DNA of 64,000 bases from Candidatus Aminicenantes bacterium (GTDB lineage Bacteria > Acidobacteriota > Aminicenantia > Aminicenantales > UBA4085), in assembly GCA_963729855.1 (NCBI GenBank), contig CAVSPT010000005.1, positions 439,661-503,660 on the forward strand. Reading direction: 5' to 3'. The translations under genes and the position numbers were made by a program. The first letter of the stretch is position 1. Each line of letters starts with the position of its first letter. This document shows, one piece after another, positions 2,133 to 18,300 of the stretch. Below the pieces are notes generated by a model. The model had not been told where the DNA came from, searched no databases, and saw nothing but the letters and a program-made list of their open reading frames with translations.

Positions 2133-3587
2133 ATGACCTTTACCAAGATCCGGTCGATCGGGATCGTGAGTATTCTGGCCGTTCTCATCGGCTGCTCGCA
2201 CTCGGCCGGACCCAAGACCGAACCGCCTCCCGTTCGCGTCGAGGCGCCGTCCGCCCAGCCCTCCCCGGTCGAGACGAAGCCCCAGGATCAGCCCAAGACC
2301 ATCATTCCGGAGGAAGAAAAGAAAGCCGCCGCCGCCGCCGAAGCCGCGGAAAGGACCGCGCCCGTCAAGACCGAAGGCAGCGGGCCGGGCGCGCTCCTCG
2401 AGGAAGCGCTCACGGCCTACCAGGAGGCCAAGACCTGCCGCGAGAGCGGCGACCTGGACGGCGCGATCAAGGGCCTGGACGAGGCTTACAACCTGATGCT
2501 CAAGGCCAAGATCGCGGCCGACTCTCCTCTCCTGCAGGAAAGAAATGATCTGCGCATCCTGATCGCCCAGCGCATTCAAGAGATCTATGCCTGCCGGACG
2601 AATCCCGTGTCCAACGGCGGCAACGCCATCGCCCTGGTCGAGAACAAGTGGGTCCAGGATGAGATCAAGAGCTTCCAGACGACCGAACGGGCTTCGTTCC
2701 TGGAAGCCTACAAGCGTTCCGGGCTCTACCGGGGGATGATCGCCGCCGAATTCCGGAAGCTGGGCCTCCCCGAGGAGCTGTCCTGGCTGCCTGTGATCGA
2801 GAGCGGGTTCACCGCCCGGGCCCTCTCCCGGGCGCGGGCCCTGGGGATGTGGCAGTTCATCGCTTCGACCGGATACCGCTACGGCCTCAACCGCGACCGC
2901 TGGGTGGATGAGCGCATGGACCCGGAGAAGGCCACCCGGGCCGCGGGCAAGTTCCTCAGCGATCTGCATACGGCTTTCGGCGATTGGGCCACCGCCCTGG
3001 CCGCCTATAATTGCGGCGAATTCGCCGTCCAGAACGTCATCAACATCCAGCACATCAATTATCTGGACGATTTCTGGGACCTGTTCTCGCGGCTCCCCTT
3101 CGAGACGGCCCGTTTCGTGCCCCGCTTCATGGCCATCGTCCTCCTGGCCAGGAATCCCGGGAAATACGGCTTCACGCTTCCCGCGCCTTACGCGCCGCTC
3201 AAGTACGAGACGATCAAGTTCAACCGGCCCATCAAGCTGACGACGCTCTCGGCCGCCCTGGGCTTGGACGAAGCGGAACTGGCTTTCCTCAATCCCGAGC
3301 TTCGCTTCGATTCGACTCCCGACACCGAGTACGACCTCAAGGTCCCCTTGGGTCTGGGAGAGAAAGCCCTTCAAGCCGTGGACAACCTGCCCAAATACGT
3401 CCCCCCCGAGGTGAGCTACTCCTGGCACCTGATCAAACCGGGAGACACCCTCTGGGGCATCGCCCGCCAGTACGGAACGTCCGTCGACATACTCCTCAAG
3501 CTCAACGGCATGCAGAGCAATTCGCTGCTCATCCCCGGCCGGAAGCTCAAAGTCCCCGGCAAGGGCGGGATGCCCGGGGATTACTGA
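2133..3587 (+). CDS. mltD: Membrane-bound lytic murein transglycosylase D-like lipoprotein (SLT domain plus C-terminal LysM)
   Basis: Signal peptide with lipobox (LIGC). SLT catalytic region 'ESGFTARALSRARALGMWQF...AAYNCGE'. C-terminal LysM 'GDTLWGIARQYGTSVDILLKLNG'. Confidence 0.85.
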   Translation: MTFTKIRSIGIVSILAVLIGCSHSAGPKTEPPPVRVEAPSAQPSPVETKPQDQPKTIIPEEEKKAAAAAEAAERTAPVKTEGSGPGALLEEALTAYQEAKTCRESGDLDGAIKGLDEAYNLMLKAKIAADSPLLQERNDLRILIAQRIQEIYACRTNPVSNGGNAIALVENKWVQDEIKSFQTTERASFLEAYKRSGLYRGMIAAEFRKLGLPEELSWLPVIESGFTARALSRARALGMWQFIASTGYRYGLNRDRWVDERMDPEKATRAAGKFLSDLHTAFGDWATALAAYNCGEFAVQNVINIQHINYLDDFWDLFSRLPFETARFVPRFMAIVLLARNPGKYGFTLPAPYAPLKYETIKFNRPIKLTTLSAALGLDEAELAFLNPELRFDSTPDTEYDLKVPLGLGEKALQAVDNLPKYVPPEVSYSWHLIKPGDTLWGIARQYGTSVDILLKLNGMQSNSLLIPGRKLKVPGKGGMPGDY

Positions 3588-5609: not shown

Positions 5610-5848
5610 TTTTAAAGTCAAGCGTTTTTATCGGGCCAAGGGGAGCCGGCGGAATCCTGTTTCGTTTTGCCGGGCGTTCATCAATTTGAGGGCCGACGGC
5701 GATCCGGTTCGAAACCCGTGCGAGGACGAAGAGGGCGCGGTCCCGACTCGACGAGTCCGGAGCGGAGGTCGGTGTGCCGTTCTTCCGTCGCTCGGAAGAA
5801 CGATCGGTGTTTCGACCCGGTTCGCCGCGAGCCCTCCTCCGTCCGCCT

Positions 5849-6619
5849 CTATGTCCGGTGGGCCAGCATGGGCGACGCCTGGCTGGTCGGCATGACGATC
5901 ATTTCGGCGATGGTCACATGGGCAGGCCGGGAGGCGCAGTAAACGACCGCGTCGGCCACATCCTCCCCGCTGAGCGGAGTGATGCCCTTGTAGACGGCGG
6001 CCGCCCGGTCGCTTTCGCCGTGAAACCGGACCAGGCTGAACTCGGTCTCGACCATGCCGGGATCGACGGTGCTGACGCGGACCGGAGTCGTCACCAGGTC
6101 CATGCGCAGGCTGCGGGACAGGGCGTTGACGGCGAATTTCGTGGCACAATAGACGTTGCCGCCGGGATAGACGTCGTGTCCGGCGATCGAGCCGATGTTG
6201 ATGACGTGGCCCCTCCCCCGCCCGACCATGCCCGGCAGGACGGCCCGGCTGACATAAAGCAGGCCCTTGACGTTCGTGTCGATCATCTCCTCCCAGTCGC
6301 TGAGGAGGCCCTCGTGGAGCTTGTCCAGGCCCCGGCTCAGGCCGGCGTTGTTGACCAGGATGTCGATGGCCGCCCACTCCGCCGGCAGCCCGGCCACGGC
6401 CTTGGCCACGTCGGGCTGGCGGCGGACGTCGAGCTCGAAATGGCGGACGGGCACGCCGTACTCCTTCTTGATCTCGGCCGCCAAGGCGGCCAGGCGATCG
6501 CCGCGGCGAGCGGCCATGAGGATGCGGGAACCCTCGCGGGCGAAGGCCTTGGCGCAGGCCCGGCCGATGCCGGAGCTGGCCCCGGTGACGAAAACGATTC
6601 GATCGCGCAGGGACGGCAT
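5849..6619 (-). CDS. SDR-family NADP-dependent oxidoreductase (YdfG-like short-chain dehydrogenase)
   Basis: 'VFVTGASSGIG' Rossmann motif, 'NNAG', catalytic 'YCATK'. ATG at 6619. Confidence 0.9.
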   Translation of the reverse strand: MPSLRDRIVFVTGASSGIGRACAKAFAREGSRILMAARRGDRLAALAAEIKKEYGVPVRHFELDVRRQPDVAKAVAGLPAEWAAIDILVNNAGLSRGLDKLHEGLLSDWEEMIDTNVKGLLYVSRAVLPGMVGRGRGHVINIGSIAGHDVYPGGNVYCATKFAVNALSRSLRMDLVTTPVRVSTVDPGMVETEFSLVRFHGESDRAAAVYKGITPLSGEDVADAVVYCASRPAHVTIAEMIVMPTSQASPMLAHRT

Positions 6620-6774
6620 GATGACCTCCGGATGATGGGATTCGAACGAAAGAGCATGATGACATATTCGAGGCGTTATTGGAATGGACCGCGCTTTCCA
6701 CGGCGCCCCGAGTCTCTCCAAAGGAACGAAACGCCCCCTTGTCTAAGTTATAATAGAGGTCTATGGAGAAGCCC

Positions 6775-7593
6775 ATGAGACGAATCGCTGTGTTTTTTCT
6801 CGTTCTGTTGACCGTCTTCCTGACCAGCTGCGGTCCCATCGAGCTGGCCAGCCTCTGGAGAAAGACCGACGTGACCATCGACGGCCGGGCCGAAGATTGG
6901 CAGGGCGCCTTGTACTCCATCGAAGACAAGCCGGTCTTCGTCGGCGTGCGAAACGACGCGGACAACATCTTCATCTGCCTCCAGGTCGCCGATCCGCGGA
7001 CCTTGTCGCCGATCATGCGCAGCGGATTCGTCACCTGGTTCGATCCCTCGGGCGGAAACGGCCGCGTCCTGGGGATCAAATTCCCGATCGGCATGACGAT
7101 CGAGCCGGGCGAGGTCAATCCCGAGGGCCCGCGTGACCGCGGCGGGTCCGGGCTCCCCCCGGTCATGAACCGCGACCTGGTCGAAATCCTGGGGCCGGAA
7201 AAGGACTCCGTCCAGCGCCTGAAAAAGGACGAGCTCAAGGGAATCGAAGTGGCCCTGGAAAGCAGCAACGGCTTTTTCGTCTACGAGCTCAAGATCCCCA
7301 TGGTCAAAAGCCCGGACACCCCGTTCGCCGTCGGCGCCGCCCCCGGAAGGACGATCGGCATCACCTTCGAAACGCTCGCGGCGGACCGGAACAGGCCGGG
7401 AGGCGGCGGAGACATGGCGCCCGCCGGCGGCGGCATGGGAGGCTATGGCGGCCGCGGGGGCATGGGCGGAATGGGCGGCGGCTACGGCGGTCGGGGAGGC
7501 CGGGGCGGCCGGGGCGGCGGGGATTACGGCGGCAAGAATTCCGAGCCTCTCAAGCTGAAGCTCAAGGTCAGCCTGGCCAAACAGCCTTCCTGA
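6775..7593 (+). CDS. Lipoprotein with CBM9/DOMON-like N-domain and Gly/Tyr/Arg/Met-rich low-complexity C-terminal tail (paralog 1)
   Basis: Signal peptide with lipobox 'LTSC'. GGAG 6 nt upstream of ATG 6775 (alternative ATG at 6763). The tail 'GGMGGYGGRGGMGGMGGGYGGRGGRGGRGGGDYGG' ends in 'LKLKLKVSLAKQPS'. Confidence 0.7.
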   Translation: MRRIAVFFLVLLTVFLTSCGPIELASLWRKTDVTIDGRAEDWQGALYSIEDKPVFVGVRNDADNIFICLQVADPRTLSPIMRSGFVTWFDPSGGNGRVLGIKFPIGMTIEPGEVNPEGPRDRGGSGLPPVMNRDLVEILGPEKDSVQRLKKDELKGIEVALESSNGFFVYELKIPMVKSPDTPFAVGAAPGRTIGITFETLAADRNRPGGGGDMAPAGGGMGGYGGRGGMGGMGGGYGGRGGRGGRGGGDYGGKNSEPLKLKLKVSLAKQPS

Positions 7594-7619
7594 TCGGCCC
7601 GACGTCCTCCGGGAATGTC

Positions 7620-8402
7620 ATGAAGCGCGCGTTCGTCATCGTCTCGGCCGCAGTCCTGACGCTCCTGTCCGCCGCCTGCGGCCCGGTCGACATTCAGAGC
7701 CGCTGGCGGACGTCCGAGATCAAGATCGACGGCCGGGCGGACGACTGGGCGGGCTCCCTGCGACGGATCGAACGCTCGCCGGTCTCGGTCGGAGTCGCCA
7801 ACGACGATCGATATGTCTATATCTGCCTTCAGGTCGAGGATCCGCGGGTCGTCGCCCCGCTCCTGCGCCGGGGGCTTGTCGTCTGGTTCGATCCGGCCGG
7901 CGGTCAGGACCGCGTCCTGGGCCTGAAATTTCCGATCGGACTGCGCCGGGACGACGGCCGGGACCGGACCGACGCGACGGGCGGCCGCGCGGCCGGGCAC
8001 GGGCCGCGGATCGACCAGGAGGACGTCGAGATCCTCGGCCCGGGGCGGGACGAATCCGTGATGCTGAAGAAGGACGATCTTAAAGGCATCGAGCTGGCCC
8101 AGGAAAACGACAACGGCCTGTTCGTCTATGAGATCAAAATCCCGCTGGCCAAAAGCGGGGACGCCCCTTACGCGGTTGGGAGCACCCCCGGGCGGTCGCT
8201 GGGGGTCGGCTTCGAGCCGTCCGCCGACGCCCTCCGGCGCGGGATGCGGGGAATTTCCGGGGGCTATGGTCCCGGCTACGGCGGCCGCGGCGGAATGATG
8301 GGCCCCGGCGGCATGATGGGCCGGGGCATGGGCCGCGGCTACGACGGAGGCGGCGAGCTCAAGATCTGGATGAAGGTCGCCCTGGCTCAACCTGCCCGTT
8401 GA
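7620..8402 (+). CDS. Lipoprotein paralog 2 (about 50% identical to 6775..7593) with GGYG/RGG-like tail
   Basis: Signal peptide with lipobox 'LSAAC'. Shares the same 'IDGRA(E/D)DW...YICLQVEDPR...WFDPAGG...LGLKFPIG' core and the conserved C-terminal 'LKIWMKVALAQPAR'. Confidence 0.7.
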   Translation: MKRAFVIVSAAVLTLLSAACGPVDIQSRWRTSEIKIDGRADDWAGSLRRIERSPVSVGVANDDRYVYICLQVEDPRVVAPLLRRGLVVWFDPAGGQDRVLGLKFPIGLRRDDGRDRTDATGGRAAGHGPRIDQEDVEILGPGRDESVMLKKDDLKGIELAQENDNGLFVYEIKIPLAKSGDAPYAVGSTPGRSLGVGFEPSADALRRGMRGISGGYGPGYGGRGGMMGPGGMMGRGMGRGYDGGGELKIWMKVALAQPAR

Positions 8403-10815
8403 TTTCCGCGGGCGGTTTTTTCCTCCTCCGAAATTTCCGGACCAGCAGGACCAGCGTAAGAAGCGGCCCGTAGAAGGCCGTGGCCGCGGCGGCGAAGCCG
8501 ATGTTTCGGCCCTTGACGATCTCCATCCCCCAGCCGAACTGGTCCTCGCTGACCAGGTAGGTCCAAGTCGAGGAAGGCCCTTTCAATCGCTCCAGGTCGA
8601 GCGGCGAGACGTCCTCTTTACGGGCGAGCGCGGCCATCTCGGCGGCGACCGCCTCGCCGATCCGGCCTTCCAATTCCAGGAATTCGGCGGTCGCCGCTTT
8701 TCGGAATTCGTCGATCGGCGTTTTCCCGCCCAGGCTGACCAGATGAATGCTTTCCCGGGTGTCCTGGATCCAGGCCAAATGGTCGGACCAAAAGCGGTCC
8801 AGATAATGGAGGGTCGCCCTCCGCTCCCAATCCGCCAGGCGGCCGGCCCCGAAGCGCCTCACGGCCTCGGCAAAGAGCCCGGGTTCCCGTTCGGCGAAGA
8901 GGCCCGGCGGCGGGCCGCCGTCCGCGCCCGTCAAGATCTCGTCGCGCTTCGTTTGAATCAGTCCCCTCTGCAGCTCGATGAGCGATGAGTATTTATAGAG
9001 CGAGCGGCGGATGTCGAAGTTCTGGCCCTCGATGATCCGCTGGGCGTGCTCGATCTCGCGCTGGAGATGGCCGGCGGGAACGGCGTCCGCTCCCGGGCCC
9101 GGGCGGTGCCGGCGGAGAAGCATCCCGGTCAAACCGTAGCGCTCGAAAAGATCGTCCTCCAGGCTGATGAAAAAGCGCGTCGAGCCCGGATCGCCCTGGC
9201 GTCCGGCGCGCCCGCGCAGCTGCCGGTCGATGCGCAGACTCTCGTGCCGGTTGGTGCCGATTACATAGAGTCCGCCCAGGGACAAGGCCCGTTCCCGCTC
9301 GCCTTCGTCCGCTCCGCCCAGCTTGATGTCCGTGCCCCGCCCGGCCATGTTGGTGGAGATCGTGACCGCGCCGGGCCGCCCGGCCTCGGCGACGATTGCG
9401 GCTTCGAGCCCGTCGTTGCGGGCGTTCAGGATCTGAACGACGACGCCGGCGGCCCGCAGGTCCGCCGCCAGCTCCTCAGACTCCCTGACGCTGGCCGTAC
9501 CGACCAGGATGGGCCGCCCCCCGGCATGGACGCCGGTGATCTCCCGGAACAAAGCCCTGCGCTTGGCCGGACGGCTGGTGAAGACCTCGTCCGGAAGGTC
9601 GCGGCGCGCAGTGGGCCTATGCGGCGGGACGATCGTCGTTTCCAGGCCGTAGAATTCCTTGAATTCCTGGGCCGCCGAGCGGGCCGTGGCCGTCATGCCG
9701 CAGAGCTCCGGATAAAGGCAGAAGAAATGCTGCAGGGTGATCGAACCCAGGATGCGGCCCTCGGTCTTCCGGGTCAGCCCCTCCTTGGCCTCCACGGCGG
9801 CCTGCAGGCCGTCCGGCCAATGGCGCTTGTCCACGACCCGGCCGGTGAATTCGTCGACGATCTCGATCCGCCCGCGGCGGACGATATAGTCGATGTCGCG
9901 GCGCAGGAGGGCCTCGGCGTGCAGGGCGCAATACACCGCCTCGAGCAGGCCCAGGTTCTCCGCGGCGTAAAGATCGCGGACGCCGAGAAACTCTTCGGTC
10001 CTGTCCGCGCCGGCCTCGGTCAGGAAGACGTTGCGGTGTTCATCGTCGGTTTCGTAGTCGCGGGCCGGAGCCAGGTCCCCGGCCAGCGCGGCCATCCGGC
10101 GGGCGTCCCAAGCGGCGCGGTCCTCGGCCCCGGAAATGACCAGGGGGATGCGGGCCTCGTCGACGAGGATCGAATCGGCCTCGTCGACCAAGGCGAAATG
10201 GAAAGGACGGTGGACGAGCGAGGCGGGATCGTCGGCGATCCGGTCGCGCAAGAAATCGAAGCCCGCCTCCTTGGCCGTGGCATAGGTCACGTCGGCCCGA
10301 TAGGCCACGCGCTTTTCGGCCGGGGCCATTCCTTCCTGAACGCAGCCGACGCTGAGGCCGAGGCCCTCGAAAACCGGCCCCATCCAGCGGGCGTCTCGGC
10401 GGGCCAGGTAATCATTGAAGGTCAGGACGTGAGCGCCCCGGCCGGCCAGGGCGTGAAGGGAGGCCGGGAAGACGGCGGCCAGGGTTTTGCCCTCGCCGGT
10501 CGGCAATTCGGCGACGCGGCGGCGGGCCATGGCCAAGGCGGCGATCATCTGGACGTCGAAGGGATCGAGCCGCAGGGCCCGGCGGGCGGCCTCGCGGACC
10601 AGGGCGAAAACTTCGATCTCCCAATCGGGCGCGCGCGGTGAGGCGCCGTCCGCGCCGCGCATGTCCGCCCCGAGCGATCGGGCCCGTTCGCGGATTTCGG
10701 AGTCGGAGAGATCCGCCCGATCGCGCCGCTTGATCTCGTCGACCATGGCGGCGTATCCCCGAAGATCGTTTTCGACGGGGTTTCCCGTCGCCCGGCGAAA
10801 GAATTTAAAAGACAT
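8359..10815 (-). CDS. secA: SecA-family preprotein translocase ATPase paralog (SecA2-like, 818 aa) with C-terminal hydrophobic helix
   Basis: Walker A 'LPTGEGKTLAAV', DEAD-like 'ALVDEADSILVDEARIPLVISG', 'ISTNMAGRGTDIKLGG'. ATG at 10815 with GGAGG upstream. C-terminus 'IGFAAAATAFYGPLLTLVLLVRKFRRRKK' replaces the usual Zn-finger tail. 44-nt convergent overlap with 7620..8402. Confidence 0.85.
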   Translation of the reverse strand: MSFKFFRRATGNPVENDLRGYAAMVDEIKRRDRADLSDSEIRERARSLGADMRGADGASPRAPDWEIEVFALVREAARRALRLDPFDVQMIAALAMARRRVAELPTGEGKTLAAVFPASLHALAGRGAHVLTFNDYLARRDARWMGPVFEGLGLSVGCVQEGMAPAEKRVAYRADVTYATAKEAGFDFLRDRIADDPASLVHRPFHFALVDEADSILVDEARIPLVISGAEDRAAWDARRMAALAGDLAPARDYETDDEHRNVFLTEAGADRTEEFLGVRDLYAAENLGLLEAVYCALHAEALLRRDIDYIVRRGRIEIVDEFTGRVVDKRHWPDGLQAAVEAKEGLTRKTEGRILGSITLQHFFCLYPELCGMTATARSAAQEFKEFYGLETTIVPPHRPTARRDLPDEVFTSRPAKRRALFREITGVHAGGRPILVGTASVRESEELAADLRAAGVVVQILNARNDGLEAAIVAEAGRPGAVTISTNMAGRGTDIKLGGADEGERERALSLGGLYVIGTNRHESLRIDRQLRGRAGRQGDPGSTRFFISLEDDLFERYGLTGMLLRRHRPGPGADAVPAGHLQREIEHAQRIIEGQNFDIRRSLYKYSSLIELQRGLIQTKRDEILTGADGGPPPGLFAEREPGLFAEAVRRFGAGRLADWERRATLHYLDRFWSDHLAWIQDTRESIHLVSLGGKTPIDEFRKAATAEFLELEGRIGEAVAAEMAALARKEDVSPLDLERLKGPSSTWTYLVSEDQFGWGMEIVKGRNIGFAAAATAFYGPLLTLVLLVRKFRRRKKPPAEINGQVEPGRPSSRS

Positions 10816-12305: not shown

Positions 12306-15300
12306 CTATCCGCAGATGACGCGGAACGGACAATCGTCGCAGGCGCGCTCGCGCCGCAGCGCGGGGTCGAAGGGGACGGCCGGATCGGCGATCTCCGCCA
12401 GGAGGCGGCCGATGATCTCTCCCATCAAGGCGACCCGGCGAAGCCGTTCGGCTTCGCGCTCCGCCCGGGCGGCCGCGATTTCGCCGGGACCGGATTTCGG
12501 GTCGGCGATCGTCCGATCCCAATCGCGAAACACTTGATCGCCCGTATAGGCCGAGTATTCGATCCGCGGGCTGAGACGATTCCGGCCCACCATGACGAAC
12601 GTCCCATGGATCCTCTCCGGAGCCGGGAATGGGGGAACGGGGCCCGATTCCCCGGCCGCGGCGGCCCCCGGCCCTTTCCCCAGTTCGGCCGACGTCAGGG
12701 CGCGCGACAGGATGAGGCCGTAGAGCGGCAGCTGGAGGCTCAGGACATATTTCGTCCAGGAGGCCCTGTCCTCGAGTTCCAGCTTGCGGAAATCGATGCC
12801 CAGGTAGGTCGTTTTGGCCGAGGTCTTGTAGTCGAGGACGTAATACTCGCCGCCGCGCATCTCCGTGCGGTCGATCTTCGCGGTCAGCTTGAAACCCCGA
12901 TAGTCGGCGCCGGTCCTCTTCTCCAGCCCCAGAATGCGAAGCTCCTTTCCCTCCTTCTCCAGGGCCTCGATGATCGGCACCTGATAATCGGTCAGGAACT
13001 CCTTCAAATGGCTCTTCATCTGGATCTTCATCAGATAAAGCGTGCCGCTCAAGCCGCCGCCGAAATCCCTCCGGAACCGGCGGTCGATGAGGGCCGCCAT
13101 CCGGGACAAACTCAGGTCCGCGGCCCGCACCACGCGCCCGGCGAACCGGACGAAATAGTCCTCCAGGATGGAGTGGACGAGCGTGCCGATGTCCTTCTTC
13201 TCCATCCCCTCGCCGACGTCCTCCTTCTCCCGCAGGCCCAGGACGTAGGTGTCATAGAATTGGAGCGGGCATTTGAGGTAGCTGTCGAGGGCCGTCGCCG
13301 AATACGTGAAGTTCCGCAGGAACCCGGCGACTTCGGCGCTCTTTTCCACCGCCGCGGGCCGGGCCGACCGGAGGGCCACTTCGTAGCGCACCGTTCGGAT
13401 GAATTTCCCGGCCCGCTTCTCCGCGCTCCGCTTCTGTTTCTCCCAGATGGCCTTTTCCACGAAGCGGCTGCGCTCTTTATCGTTGTTCTCGACAAAGATC
13501 ATCTGGACCCGCCGGGCCCCGCGGACGAGCGTGTCGAGATAATATTCCATGCGCCGCTCGTTGTCCCGGTAGGTCGGCAGGCCCATGGCCCGCCGCGCGG
13601 CGAAGGGCAGCAGCGAATCGGCCCGCTTGGAAGCCGGCAGGACGTCCTCGTTCATGTCCAGGATGAAGACGTCCTCGAAGGGCAGGCCGCGCGTCTCCCA
13701 GAAGCCCAGCACCTGCAGGCCGTGAAGCGGCGTTCCCTCGAAGGGCACCGTTCCGGCCGAAACGACCTTCCGGAAAAGGTTAAAGTAGCTTCCCGGATCG
13801 GCGAAGGCCGTGGCCCCCAGGAGCGACCGGCCGAGAGAGCCGAGCTGGGCCATGAAGGCTTCGGCGTAGGGGTGGAAGAAATAATGCCGGCGGGCGGCGC
13901 TGTTTTCATAGATGAAATCGAGAGCCGCGGCGAGCTTGGCCGCGAAATCGGCGACGTCGCGGATCGTCCGGAACGGGCGGATGAGCGCGGCGTGGATCGA
14001 CCGCAGCTGATCCATGAAGGCGGCCGCGTCGGGCGCGCCGTCGAGGCCCGTCGTCCGCTCCTGGACCGCCCGCCGGACGGCCGCATCGTTTTCCAGCTCC
14101 TCGAGCGCCCAGAAGGCCCTGGCGCGGCGGGCCGTCAGCTCCTCCTCGACGGCATGGAAGAGGATGCGGGTGAAATCGGCCCGCTCGTCGCGGCCGGCGA
14201 AATGGATGTTTTTCGTATAGGGATGCAGGACGAAGCGCAGATAATGCGGGGCGTAGACGCGGCCCTCCTCGTCCATCGACTGGACGAGCTCCAGCAGCTT
14301 GTCGAAGAAGCTGTAGATCGGCGTGCGGGACAGCGGATAGCCGAGAGAGATGTTGAACTCCTCGGCTTTCAGGGCGGACAGGGTCTGTTGGTGGAGGGGG
14401 AAAAGCGTTTCGGACGCCGGCAGAACGATGACCACGCGCTCATGGAGCCGGGCCCGGTCGGCCAGGAGCGGCGCCAGGACCCGGTTGAGAGCGAAGACCT
14501 GTCCGTGCGCGTCCGGGCTCTTGATGATTTCGATCTCCGTTGGCGGCGGCTCCGCGGCTCCGCCGCCCAGCCCCGCCTTCATGGCCCGGGCCCGCGTCTC
14601 CGGGTCATCGATCCCGAGCCGATCCAGCGTCCCTTCGATTCCCTTGCCTTCCAGGAGCAGGAGATCGAACTTCTCCCAATTCCGCATCGTCCGGATGAGC
14701 CGGGCCTCGGCCCCGGTCAGGGTGAAGAATCCGGCGAAAATGATCCGCTCGATATCTTCGAAAATCTCCGGCCCGACGGCTTCGGATACGGCCCGCAGCC
14801 GCGACGAGCAGGTGGAAAAGCCCCGGGCGGCCAAAATCCCATAAAACTCATCGTAGAAAACGGAGACGGACTGGAGGCGCTTCCGCGCGGCCTCGGGGAC
14901 GGACGTTTCGCCCCAGACATCGGCTTTCAGAAGCTCGTCCCGGGTCACGGCGGCGGCCTGCAGCTCCTCCAGGTCCCGAAAAAGCTTGGTCCCCAGAGGA
15001 AAGAATTGGTCGGCGGTCAGGAAATGCTCCCGGCCCAGCCGGCCGATCGAGCCGCGGTGGATCTCGAACAGGAGGGCCACGGCGTCGAGGGCGTCGATCG
15101 TCCGGTCCCTGCGCCCCATCCGTTCGCCGTAGACCTGGTCGATGAACGTCTCGATCGAACCGGTCCGCGGCGGGATAAAGCCGCTTTTTTCGCGCTCCGC
15201 AAGTGTCTTGCGCAGGTAATACGAGGGGCGGCGCTCGGGGAAAACGACCCACTGTCTGGAATAGTCCTTTCCCTCCGGATGGAGGCGCCCGGCCACGGCG

Positions 15301-15341
15301 GCGATCAGCCCCGCCCTGGGGGAAACGAATTCCAGGCTCAT
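12306..15341 (-). CDS. addB: AddB/RexB-like PD-(D/E)XK nuclease subunit of a two-subunit helicase-nuclease (no Walker A at N-terminus)
   Basis: C-terminal RecB-nuclease motif 'VLDYKTS'. Terminal Cys cluster 'CDDCPFRVIC' plus upstream 'YLKCP' (AddB-type Fe-S staple). Its ATG overlaps the addA stop as ATGA at 15338-15341. Confidence 0.8.
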   Translation of the reverse strand: MSLEFVSPRAGLIAAVAGRLHPEGKDYSRQWVVFPERRPSYYLRKTLAEREKSGFIPPRTGSIETFIDQVYGERMGRRDRTIDALDAVALLFEIHRGSIGRLGREHFLTADQFFPLGTKLFRDLEELQAAAVTRDELLKADVWGETSVPEAARKRLQSVSVFYDEFYGILAARGFSTCSSRLRAVSEAVGPEIFEDIERIIFAGFFTLTGAEARLIRTMRNWEKFDLLLLEGKGIEGTLDRLGIDDPETRARAMKAGLGGGAAEPPPTEIEIIKSPDAHGQVFALNRVLAPLLADRARLHERVVIVLPASETLFPLHQQTLSALKAEEFNISLGYPLSRTPIYSFFDKLLELVQSMDEEGRVYAPHYLRFVLHPYTKNIHFAGRDERADFTRILFHAVEEELTARRARAFWALEELENDAAVRRAVQERTTGLDGAPDAAAFMDQLRSIHAALIRPFRTIRDVADFAAKLAAALDFIYENSAARRHYFFHPYAEAFMAQLGSLGRSLLGATAFADPGSYFNLFRKVVSAGTVPFEGTPLHGLQVLGFWETRGLPFEDVFILDMNEDVLPASKRADSLLPFAARRAMGLPTYRDNERRMEYYLDTLVRGARRVQMIFVENNDKERSRFVEKAIWEKQKRSAEKRAGKFIRTVRYEVALRSARPAAVEKSAEVAGFLRNFTYSATALDSYLKCPLQFYDTYVLGLREKEDVGEGMEKKDIGTLVHSILEDYFVRFAGRVVRAADLSLSRMAALIDRRFRRDFGGGLSGTLYLMKIQMKSHLKEFLTDYQVPIIEALEKEGKELRILGLEKRTGADYRGFKLTAKIDRTEMRGGEYYVLDYKTSAKTTYLGIDFRKLELEDRASWTKYVLSLQLPLYGLILSRALTSAELGKGPGAAAAGESGPVPPFPAPERIHGTFVMVGRNRLSPRIEYSAYTGDQVFRDWDRTIADPKSGPGEIAAARAEREAERLRRVALMGEIIGRLLAEIADPAVPFDPALRRERACDDCPFRVICG

Positions 15342-18300
15342 TCCACCGTCTCCCATGTCCGGCGGTCCACGTAGGCCAGGATCCCGCGGACGGACCGCCG
15401 GGGGAAGACGTCCCGGGCGATCCGGATATATTCGCGCACTTGGGCCCGGTCGGATTCCTCGAGGCGGGAGCGGACGCCTTCGCGCGCGAAGCCGGCCCCG
15501 CCGGCCCCTTCAGCGCCGGTCTTGAAATCGATGATGGCGACGGCATCCGGATCGACCACGACGCGGTCCATCCGATAGGCCCGTCCCTCCGCATCGCAGA
15601 AGGTCAGCTCGCGCATTACCCGCCGATCGGGGCGGGGCTCGAAATATCGGGCGATCGGAGACCCGCTCAGATTGCGGGCCAAGGTCCGGGTGACTTCGGC
15701 ACACAGCCCGGCCTCCGGATCGGCCGGTCGGACGGCTTCCGCCGCCGAAGCCAAAGCCTCCTGCCATCCCCCCGTCACGAACTCCAGTCCGGCCAGAATG
15801 CGGTGGGCCAGCTCGCCGCGCCGGCGGTTCCGGTCATTGAGCGAGTCGCGGGAATTGGGGGGAAGTTCGAACGGTCCGGCGGGACGCATGGTCGGGGCCG
15901 GTTCGCTCTCGATTTTTTTCCTGCGGCTTCGGAGGGGAGGTTTTTCAGGGGCCGAGCGATAGACGATTGTTCCGCCGGAGCTCCCGGCCGGCGTCCCCCC
16001 CGCCTCCACCGGAAACGGGCCGGGTCCATCCAGCAGATTGAAGGGGAACTCGGAATTCTTCCCCTGGACCCCGACGATGTAGAGTTCGGCCTCGGCCCGG
16101 GTCAGGGCGACATAGAGCGTGTTCAGCCGGTTGACCTCGTCTTTGCGCTTGGCCGCCTCGTAGATGTCCTTGAGCCGGGAGTCGGCCTCGGCCAGGGCCT
16201 TGTTGATTTTGTAGACGCGGATCCCGCCCGCACCGCCGGGCTCTCCCGTTCCGGCCTCCGCCTCCCCGGCATCGAGATAAAAATCCGGAGCGATCCATTT
16301 TTCGCCGTAGAGCAGCAGGATGACCACGGGAAAGCCCAGGCCCTTAGCCTTGTGGATGGTCATGATCTTGATCGCCTCGATCTCCGAGGGGACGTCGATC
16401 GTCCAGCCCTCGCCGGCGGCGTCGCTCGTGAAATCCAGGAATTCCCGGAGATCGTTGTGGCCCCGACTTTCGAAATTTTTGATTGTTTCGAGGAACTTGA
16501 CCAGGGCCGCCTCCTCGCCGGGGAAGCTCCGGAAAAGGTCGAAGGCCCGGTAGATCGAGACGGCCAGGTCGTAGAGCGGATAAAAGCCGACGGCCTTGAA
16601 CAAGGGCTCGAAGAACCGACCCCAGGCGTCCTTGAATCGACGGCGAAAGGCCGTGTAGACCGGGGCGCCCGCGCGCCGGGCGCCGAAAAGGAAGCGGCGA
16701 AGATCCGCGGAGGCGATCCCGCCGCCGGAGGGTCCGGCGAAAACGTCGCCCAGCAGGAAGGCCGCGAAAGACAGATCATCGGGCGGGGAATCCAGAAAGC
16801 GCAGGAGGGCCAGGATCTCGCCGATGATCTTCCGCCCGCGGATGTCCAGGCTGCTGAAGGGGATGAAGGGGACCCCTTGACGGTCCGGATTCTTCGGGTC
16901 CGGCATCTCGTTCAGCCAAGCCGCCACGTCGACGACGGATTCGTTCTTGTAGGTCAGGACGGCGATGTCGGAATAGGCGCACCCGCGCCGGACGAGCCCG
17001 GCGATGAGGGACTGGATTTTCGCTTTTTCCGGCCGCTCGTCGGCGGCGGCCGGGTCCGCCGGCTCCCCGGATCCGCCGTTTTCATCCCGGCCGTCCTCCT
17101 CCGCCGCCTCGTTCCCGAAAAGGACATACTCGACGTATCCCGCGCCCTTGTTGTTCTCGACGACGTCCTGATGGAATTCGTTCAGCCCGCTCAGCTTCTC
17201 CGTCTCCGTGGACTCCGATTCGGTCTGGAAAACCTTTTTAACGAAATCGAGGATCTTCTCGCCGCTTCGGAAATTCTCCCTCAGCTCGCGGACCCGGATT
17301 TCGGCCGAGGCGAACCGCTCCCCGCCTTCCTCCAGCCTTTTCATGATCCGGTAATCGGCGTCCCGGAAGCCGTAGATCGCCTGCTTGGTGTCGCCGACGA
17401 CGAACAGGCTTCCGCCCTTGCTCAGCGACTCTTCGATGAGCGGACGAAGATTGGTCCATTGGATGGGCGAGGTGTCCTGAAACTCGTCGATCAGATAATG
17501 GTCGATGCGGTCGCCGAGCCGGAAATAGATGTCGGGAACGATCCCGGCGTCCATGTATCGGGCCAGCTGCTTGTTCATGTCCTCGATGAAGACGATCCCC
17601 TGCTGGCGCTTGACCCGGTCGAGCGTTCCGGCCAGCGCCCTGTAGGCCTTCAAATAGGGGGAAAAGAAATCCCGGGCGTAGAGTCCGCCGTATCCGCGGA
17701 CGGATTTTTCCAGCGCCCTCCAGCGGGCCTCGATACGGTCGTAGGCGTCCGCGCCGGCCCCCGCTTTTCCGCGGCCGGCCGGTTTCCTGACGGGCACGGT
17801 CTTGAAGCTGACCGCGGCCAGTCCGCTGAAGCGCTTCTCCCGGACGGCCGGGAGAACCCGGGAAAAATAGTGGCTGCGGGCGTTCTTCTCCAGCCCGCAG
17901 GCCTCGACCGCGCGTTCAAGCTCGTCCGTTTGGGCCGTGATCTTCTTGATGACCCGGGCATAGGCCTTGTCCAGCTTGTCGATGACCAGGTCCCCGCGCT
18001 GGGCGGCCAGGCGGCCGTAAAAGGAGGTCATCTTCTCCAGGATCGGCCCGGACGGGTCCCAGGCGTACGACGCGTCGGCCTCCTGATAGAGGGCCAAGCG
18101 GGCGAGGATGTCGCGGAAGATCGCCGCTTCGCCGGTCCTGTCCCGGATCGTGCGCAGATAGCGGTGGAAGGCGTAATCGATGAGCTCGGCGTGTTCGAGG
18201 ACGATCTCGAAATCGGGCGGAAAACCAAGGTCGACCGCCGAGGCCTTGAAGACCGTGGCCATGAAGCCGTCGATCGTCTCGACCTGGAAATCGGTGTATT

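Follow-up and report, generated by a model that had tools for sequence, protein, structure and literature searches.

The CBM9 module TmCBM9-2 of T. maritima Xyn10A (1I82) is a β-sandwich appended to a glycoside hydrolase, and it carries a binding Trp in the loop before its last strand; the sugar is clamped by the exposed pair W71 and W175. A related sandwich occurs in haem-b proteins of the DOMON and EB_dh kinds, among them ethylbenzene dehydrogenase gamma (EBDH-gamma, 2IVF_C), NxrC (7B04_C) and the cytochrome of cellobiose dehydrogenase. The envelope stress proteins Spy, CpxP and ZraP, which make up the LTXXQ family, have the fold of an α-helical cradle, and ZraP ends in a Gly-rich disordered segment that contains Met and His. 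In a 64,000-nucleotide stretch of DNA from Candidatus Aminicenantes bacterium (hereafter the window), two consecutive genes, A and B, encode lipoproteins whose models are of a single β-sandwich of the CBM9/DOMON/EBDH-gamma superfamily, with the final two strands joined by a disordered loop made mainly of Gly, Arg and Met. Both are members of a family that runs into the thousands. In a substantial minority of lineages this family is part of a σE-like extracytoplasmic function (ECF) regulon that also takes in Spy-like proteins and efflux pumps, a context that the first-pass annotation of the sequence had missed. Literature searches on the family, the motif and Gly-rich lipoproteins of Aminicenantes returned eukaryotic RGG papers only. 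Apparently undescribed are the family itself, the architecture and motif of its loop, and its ECF/Spy-like regulon context; the sandwich fold is already known, as is the general notion that periplasmic stress proteins may carry Gly-rich disordered segments.

That A and B are tandem paralogous lipoproteins, as first annotated, is borne out by two co-oriented open reading frames (ORFs), each starting with a Sec signal peptide and a lipobox Cys, acylation being a prediction from sequence. Their identity, put at about 50% at first, is 44% over 271 aa (BLASTP, E 1e-66) and comes to 49% in the N-domain (200-201 aa) only. The features of the pair are as follows, with model confidence given as predicted local distance difference test (pLDDT) values.

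6775..7593, + strand: gene A, lipoprotein of 272 aa (ORF listing and database protein P0001)
6775..6831, + strand: signal peptide and lipobox of A (MRRIAVFFLVLLTVFLTS-C19), read from sequence
6838..7374, + strand: β-sandwich core of A, residues 22-200
~7090-7173, + strand: variable charged insert in the core of A, residues ~106-133, low pLDDT
7390..7542, + strand: disordered Gly/Arg/Met(/Tyr) loop of A, residues 206-256, pLDDT ~40
7543..7578, + strand: last β-strand of A (EPLKLKLKVSLA), which closes the sandwich; strand 260-266, pLDDT 97
7620..8402, + strand: gene B, paralogous lipoprotein of 260 aa
8235..8354, + strand: disordered Gly/Arg/Met loop of B, residues 206-245, pLDDT <50 for residues 206-244
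8355..8390, + strand: last β-strand region of B (ELKIWMKVALAQ); strand 249-254, pLDDT 95
8392..8425, + strand: intrinsic-terminator-like hairpin (8-bp stem with 6 GC pairs) and T-run (TTTTTT) at the end of the A-B unit

The lipobox is VFLTS-C19 in A (Cys codon 6829-6831) and LLSAA-C20 in B (codon 7677-7679). An alternative ATG at 6763 would lengthen the product of A to 276 aa; the likely start is nevertheless 6775, because GGAG at 6765-6768 is suitably placed 6 nt before that ATG and the 272-aa database protein P0001, which is 100% identical to the product of A, begins there. The 26-nt gap between A and B is free of terminators and the hairpin with its T-run follows B, so that the two genes probably form a single transcription unit. 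In this region of 65-70% GC the opposite strand also has long ORFs (5628-7268 and 7524-8390), which are shadow ORFs. No third copy was detected in the window by tblastn.

The tandem arrangement of A and B is confined to close relatives, such as the one with P0002 and P0012 on a single 7-kb contig, and the ortholog locus L008 has A and lacks B. In loci L006 (14-718 and 1508-2335) and L007 there is a second and more divergent family copy two genes upstream of P0114, the copies being separated by an unannotated 253-aa lipoprotein-like gene, and paralog clustering therefore recurs outside the clade of the window.

AlphaFold2 models of A (pLDDT 80.6, predicted TM-score (pTM) 0.75) and B (pLDDT 80.3, pTM 0.74) bear on what had been annotated as a 40-50-aa tail of Gly, Tyr, Arg and Met, followed by a terminal LK..KVxLA motif. 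The stretch and its composition are as described and the motif is conserved, but the motif forms the final strand of the sandwich in the models, so the stretch is no tail but a loop within the fold that joins the penultimate strand to the last. The loop of A (50 aa: G29 R5 M4 Y3) holds GGRGGMGG, the tri-RGG RGGRGGRGG and one further RGG, and that of B (40 aa: G20 R6 M6 Y3) has one RGG and several RG; Gly, Arg, Met and Tyr make up more than 80% of both. An RGG-type low-complexity region was thus correctly recognized at the outset; RGG and RG repeats cluster within the disordered segment (pLDDT about 40 in both models), and the resemblance to nucleic acid binding and phase-separating proteins is a likeness at the level of sequence. 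At the DNA level the loop of A contains imperfect tandem repeats of 9/18/27/39 bp (7427-7523) and that of B 12/18-bp repeats (8283-8339), and close relatives vary in the loop by insertion or deletion of repeat units. The mid-domain insert at residues ~106-133 is a second, shorter disordered stretch that is charged and variable in length.

The loop was found in every one of 120 retrieved homologs, with a length of 35-71 residues (median 50), and in all 120 the sequence P-L-K-x-W-x-x-V-x-L-A comes after it. Since this motif is conserved beyond the stretch and is packed into the sandwich, the reading frame is certain. Pooled over the 120 homologs the loop is 44% Gly, 12% Arg, 11% Met and 7% Pro; the corresponding values outside the loop in the same proteins are G 9.8%, R 6.1% and M 3.0%. 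Its median net charge is +4, and aromatic residues (W 0.1%, Y 1.1%, F 0.9%), His (0.6%) and Cys (0%) are scarce or absent. Tyr is present in just 40 of the loops, so GGYGG, singled out initially, is a peculiarity of a clade; the family-wide signature is Gly/Arg/Met with GGRGGMGG, Tyr being incidental. Among 117 distinct loops GRGGMG occurs in 76 and GGRGGMGG in 58. Alternation of Arg and Met exceeds that in shuffled loops (RM 377, 284 expected), and M-x2-3-M spacings, as M-G2-3-M, are common. Loops from the 31 loci with a GC content below 45% have G 34%, R 12% and M 10%, and the loop is kept in genomes of 32-69% GC with Arg and Met fractions that are uncorrelated with genomic GC. Because Arg and Met content is independent of genomic GC, the bias is not mutational, and selection acts on the composition of the loop. 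The family's most distant members (some from Omnitrophota and Ignavibacteria) have a shorter loop or one of more mixed composition.

The family is large. There are 424 homologs in a database clustered at 90% identity, and when 1.84 billion cluster representatives (50% identity) were searched with a profile, 1,936 matched at E<=1e-30, 4,358 at E<=1e-10 and, at the loosest cutoff of E<=1e-3, 5,791. The 150 top matches each consist of a single domain and have 253-360 aa. In databases the proteins are named 'hypothetical' or, wrongly, 'YgcG'. The lipobox Cys is found in 222 full-length members out of 250, and a signal of the signal-peptidase-I type in the remaining 28, so export is universal in the family and lipidation usual. 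In the GTDB species set a relative is encoded in 112 genomes, as scanned with alignment A2 (alignment A1 was too divergent to serve as the query), and the counts of loci below rest on 80 species loci retrieved from these, all of them metagenome-assembled genomes. The 80 loci come from Aminicenantes, other Acidobacteriota, Ignavibacteriota, Bacteroidota, Rhodothermales, Omnitrophota, Zixibacteria, Latescibacterota and Cloacimonetes. One contig-truncated member, P0072, has a C-terminal extension past the last strand with a TlpA/redoxin-like start ('...FRGQKPVVLFFGSYT'). A redoxin fusion was considered for it and set aside, since the AhpC-TSA match (E 0.016) was not recovered on a rescan at E<=0.01; if real, such a fusion could be a pointer to envelope redox or folding.

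The sandwich of the CBM9/DOMON type that had been suggested from the sequence of A and B is what the models and structure matches agree on, the likeness extending to EBDH-gamma and NxrC. The fold comparisons, each with its pair of values, were:

Ethylbenzene dehydrogenase gamma, 2IVF_C: 12.0 / 11.8
CBM9-2 of T. maritima Xyn10A, 1I82_A: 11.5 / 10.9
NxrC, 7B04_C: 11.1 / 10.8
BACUNI_03838, 4JPQ: 10.3 / 9.8
Sas6/CBM74: 9.6 / 9.3
DOMON domain of dopamine beta-hydroxylase: 9.5 / 9.0

With Foldseek, model A matched CBM9 7NWO at E 4.9e-6, 1I82 at 1.4e-5, NxrC at 2e-5 and EBDH-gamma at 2.1e-5. At the level of sequence the relationship is faint. Scans of A and B against Pfam (E<=10) and NCBIfam gave zero matches, including to LTXXQ, EB_dh and DOMON, and CBM9_1 (PF06452) was matched by 4 of 49 relatives at a best E of 0.015, below its curated threshold. 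An hhalign comparison with a TmCBM9-2 sequence, whose residue numbering is consistent with the published binding residues, aligned just 45 N-terminal columns (IDG..DW..ND..LY..DP) with a probability of 41%. Searches of PDB sequences with the full-length profile returned low-complexity matches only (linkers, RG tails, the GroEL GGM tail and ZraP); the N-domain alone gave one chance match, and a domain-only profile of 63 sequences nothing significant. The motifs of the family nevertheless run in the order of those in CBM9, namely IDGxxxDW, xNDxxxLYxxL, xWFD, GxxVYExxxP, xIGxxF and the last strand, and for this reason the Gly/Arg/Met loop is placed, by topology, at the probable position of the Trp175 loop of TmCBM9-2. 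The strongly conserved motifs of the structured core are WFDPxGG, FGIxFPxG, EILGPG and VYELKVP, and its invariant positions include D36, W42, N60, D61, R82, W88, D90, E137, Y170 and E171.

There is no universal operon: the neighborhoods of P0042, P0047, P0056 and P0114 all differ. The commonest Pfam assignments among the 77 immediately upstream same-strand neighbors are LTXXQ (11/77) and Metal_resist (10/77), that is the Spy/CpxP/ZraP family; these were confirmed one by one, the Spy matches being weak. In loci L014, L038 and L085 the gene order is ECF sigma factor, small transmembrane LTXXQ protein, soluble LTXXQ protein and then the family gene. Elsewhere an ECF sigma factor and a zf-HC2 anti-sigma factor precede the family gene (L061), or an ECF gene is followed at some remove by HlyD, MacB and the family gene (L026, L031), or two MdtC-like RND genes and OEP stand before it (L002). 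Heavy-metal efflux was ruled out for such neighbors, as the pumps score as MdtC or MacB and not as CusA or CzcA, and no cop, cus or czc genes are present in the family neighborhoods. The E. coli Bae regulon, which unites spy with mdtABC, offers an analogy for the combination of Spy-like proteins and pumps. The sigma factors beside the family have their best scores against RpoE/SigW-type models, below the cutoffs. In L085 the LTXXQ/Metal_resist repeat protein encoded upstream of the family gene (2332-3264, + strand) has a C-terminal sorting domain of the type IX secretion system (T9SS; Por_Secre_tail / FlgD_ig), which implies export of this Spy-like protein to the cell surface. A different context from that with ECF and LTXXQ genes is seen in the Ignavibacteria/Bacteroidota loci L036, L042, L047 and L055-L057, where a conserved single-domain response regulator is encoded upstream of the family gene; a conserved gene downstream on the opposite strand in the same clade is probably the source of five Rieske matches, which are unmapped to single loci.

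The upstream DNA in related loci shares a promoter-like motif, GGAAT(A)-N17/18-(T)GTCTAA(T), that resembles the enterobacterial σE consensus. The form [GCT]GAA[TC]-N16-19-GTCTAA has 24 matches in 1.71 Mb of locus sequence, both strands counted, and these are distributed as follows.

Before ECF sigma genes (autoregulation): 9 matches, 9/9 genes
Before LTXXQ-to-family operons: 10 matches
Directly before the family gene: 2 matches (L039; L040, 36 nt ahead of the ORF)
Before a TonB-dependent receptor beside the family gene: 1 match (L028, 9750-9778, minus strand)
Elsewhere: 2 matches

In a control, 2 of 1,680 random 260-nt windows reached the level set for a relaxed form of the motif. The family gene lies downstream of the motif on the same strand in 15 of the 80 species loci, usually right after a Spy/CpxP-like LTXXQ gene, and the loci with the motif (L014, L026-L029, L031, L038-L040, L061 and L085) come from several phyla. 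The motif could serve to define an envelope-stress regulon in uncultured lineages of the Fibrobacteres-Chlorobi-Bacteroidetes (FCB) group and Acidobacteriota. In Prevotella intermedia a σE-like ECF gene and an LTXXQ gene are co-induced in solid relative to planktonic culture (PMC2633007).

In the window a candidate counterpart stands upstream of A:

6723..6754, + strand: promoter-like region, GGAAC-N13-GTCTAA(G) at 6723-6747, overlapped by a perfect TATAAT at 6749-6754

This is the one match to GGAAY-N12-19-GTCTAA in the 64 kb, where 0.18 would be expected by chance; TTGTCTAA upstream of A likewise has a single occurrence in the window, and the promoter-like stretch is kept in the ortholog locus L008.

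Our preferred proposal, held tentatively and at somewhat below even chances, is that A and B are membrane-tethered envelope-stress factors that bind through the loop, their target being either unfolded envelope proteins, which they would serve as holdase or adaptor, or anionic envelope polymers. The proteins would be exported and anchored to the membrane through a lipid-modified Cys, the rigid sandwich would provide the tethered scaffold, and the flexible, cationic and Met-rich loop would be the working part, sited where CBM9 has part of its ligand-binding site. By 'fly-casting', the loop might capture damaged or unfolded envelope proteins, or anionic polymers such as lipopolysaccharide (LPS), exopolysaccharide (EPS) or extracellular DNA (eDNA), and the lipoprotein may then cooperate with soluble Spy-like holdases during envelope stress, as would fit its apparent co-transcription in many lineages with Spy/CpxP-like LTXXQ proteins or its position behind multidrug-type efflux pumps. 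The family shares an operon and an ECF-type promoter with Spy, CpxP and ZraP in related genomes, and its loop is, like the end of ZraP, Gly-rich and Met-containing; it differs from them in being all-β, lipid-anchored and without the LTXXQ motif. In enterobacteria RcsF and NlpE are outer-membrane lipoprotein sensors of envelope stress, and RcsF monitors LPS via a disordered, positively charged segment. They are, as the family would be, small lipoproteins tied to envelope stress, with no relation to it in sequence or fold, and a sensing role for the family on their pattern is speculation by analogy.

Several considerations weigh against this proposal. About 80% of the species loci are without ECF or LTXXQ linkage and their neighborhoods are otherwise heterogeneous. 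Within the 64-kb window tblastn found no ECF or LTXXQ homolog, and the element upstream of A has a spacing of 13 nt as against 17-18 nt in related loci; with that spacing and the overlapping TATAAT, ECF control in this genome is suggestive only. The ligand of the loop is one that we infer, and where the loop sits with respect to the CBM9 site, as derived from strand order and motif correspondence, is likewise provisional. The strongly conserved core motifs suggest a specific site within the sandwich, which a picture of the sandwich as mere scaffold leaves unexplained. Should the proposal be right, a family of thousands that is currently unannotated would be a core envelope-stress component in Aminicenantes, Acidobacteriota, Ignavibacteriota, Bacteroidota, Omnitrophota and others, and its loop would join the few conserved disordered regions that are under selection for composition and work outside the bacterial cytoplasm. 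The motif and the operon partners then provide a concrete, testable regulon for organisms without genetics. If the loop is merely decorative, the finding shrinks to a new CBM9/DOMON-like subfamily.

Other explanations of the same features need to be kept in mind. A glycan-binding module, in which the CBM9-like sandwich tethers a polysaccharide (EPS or capsule, peptidoglycan or plant polymers) to the membrane and the loop is accessory, is unlikely though it merits the most attention among them. The closest folds include CBM9 and the putative carbohydrate binders 4JPQ and Sas6/CBM74, and the sub-threshold CBM9_1 matches, the hhalign result and the TonB-dependent receptors encoded downstream in about 6 of 78 loci point the same way. 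Yet the sequence relation to CBM9 falls under every curated threshold, and the family consists of stand-alone, single-domain lipoproteins attached to no enzyme and with no recurrent carbohydrate-active enzyme among the 77 upstream and 78 downstream neighbors; moreover, the Trp175 half of the sugar clamp is probably missing, as the loop that by topology corresponds to the one bearing Trp175 in TmCBM9-2 is here the near-aromatic-free Gly/Arg/Met loop. A buffer or sensor of metal, with the Met-rich loop binding soft metal ions in the periplasm (Cu(I) or Ag(I), conceivably Zn) much as ZraP tails or the Met-rich segments of CueO and PcoA would, is distinctly improbable. It would account for the three- to four-fold enrichment of Met irrespective of genomic GC, the M-x2-3-M spacings, the Metal_resist and LTXXQ neighbors of the ZraP family and the match of the loop profile to the Gly-rich tail of ZraP. 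That match also qualifies the rarity first ascribed to such low-complexity regions in secreted bacterial proteins, for which periplasmic stress proteins provide a precedent. The metal reading sits poorly, though, with a loop that is strongly cationic and almost without His or Cys, with the absence of cop, cus or czc genes nearby and with adjacent pumps of the MdtC/MacB multidrug type, and 'Metal_resist' is merely a family name. Less probable by far is a haem-b electron-transfer protein of the DOMON/EB_dh type with an axial Met from the loop. The Met-rich loop does precede the last strand, and the axial Lys of EBDH-gamma lies near the region before that strand. The structured core, however, has no invariant or near-invariant Met, His or Lys in alignments A1, A4 and A6, and Met residues among the conserved columns checked for haem ligation are confined to the loop, where a disordered Gly-rich segment is an unlikely source of a fixed axial ligand; no molybdoenzyme alpha or beta subunits or other redox partners are encoded among the 77 upstream and 78 downstream neighbors or in the window, and Pfam EB_dh and DOMON are unmatched.

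The proposals that draw on eukaryotic RGG proteins have a slim chance of being correct. The loop shares its composition, the RGGRGGRGG, GRGGMGG and GGM motifs and predicted disorder with RGG/GAR boxes (FUS, fibrillarin, Sm D1) and with the (GGM)n tail of GroEL, a likeness that is compositional and not homologous; in contrast to these, the family is bacterial and extracytoplasmic, in a compartment free of RNA, and has a closed loop with few aromatics instead of a free tail. As a condensate or matrix protein, an idea raised in the first-pass annotation, it would bind polyanions (eDNA, polyphosphate, acidic EPS or LPS) multivalently through its RGG/Met loop and form a gel or coat outside the cell or in the periplasm. 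The tri-RGG and GRGGMGG are identical to FUS-type RGG-box motifs, the loops are disordered, cationic and repetitive, their DNA-level repeats allow rapid variation in length, and one operon partner bears the T9SS surface-sorting domain. Set against that are the low valency of a single short loop of 35-70 aa per protein, the limited reach of a loop closed at both ends by the sandwich and the rarity of Tyr and Phe 'stickers' across the family. A stronger form of the idea, slimmer still in its prospects, is that the Gly/Arg/Met loop is an extracytoplasmic counterpart of eukaryotic RGG domains which, under σE-type stress, enters a multivalent and reversible network or condensate: thousands of such lipoproteins would decorate the envelope with anionic polymers or unfolded proteins as partners, and an ATP-free 'periplasmic hydrogel' might protect or repair the envelope beside Spy-like chaperones. 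What can be dismissed, as refuted by conservation, is an artefact in which the Gly-rich region is out of frame, as was allowed for initially, or the ORFs are not genes. High GC does yield long shadow ORFs on the opposite strand, but there are the 424 homologs in 90%-identity clusters and, for 50% identity and E <1e-30, no fewer than 1,936 clusters, the loop is retained at 32-69% GC, and the C-terminal strand that follows it is conserved in 120/120 homologs, structurally required and packed at pLDDT 95-97.

The genes that flank A and B in the window are unrelated to them and encode an SDR protein, a TetR regulator, flavin mononucleotide (FMN) reductases and a convergent SecA2. Further along, at 12306-15374, ORFs of about 1,000 aa overlap on opposite strands (12534-15374, + strand, and 12306-15356, - strand), and the one on the + strand has no Pfam match. 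The SecA2-like gene (8359-10815, - strand; 817 aa) scores 800 bits against TIGR04221, for which the cutoff is 725. TIGR04221 is the equivalog of mycobacterial-type accessory SecA2, which is unexpected in an Aminicenantes-like genome, and the protein ends in a hydrophobic segment (IGFAAAATAFYGPLLTLVLLV) and then RKFRRRKK, not in the typical zinc-finger tail of SecA. L008 shares the synteny of SecA2 and gene A (84% identity); a functional link of SecA2 to A was dismissed as local synteny, common only to this closest ortholog locus. The 3′ ends of gene B (+ strand) and the SecA2-like gene (- strand) are convergent with a 44-nt overlap (8359-8402), and the SecA2 coding region includes the terminator-like hairpin of the A-B unit (8392-8415).

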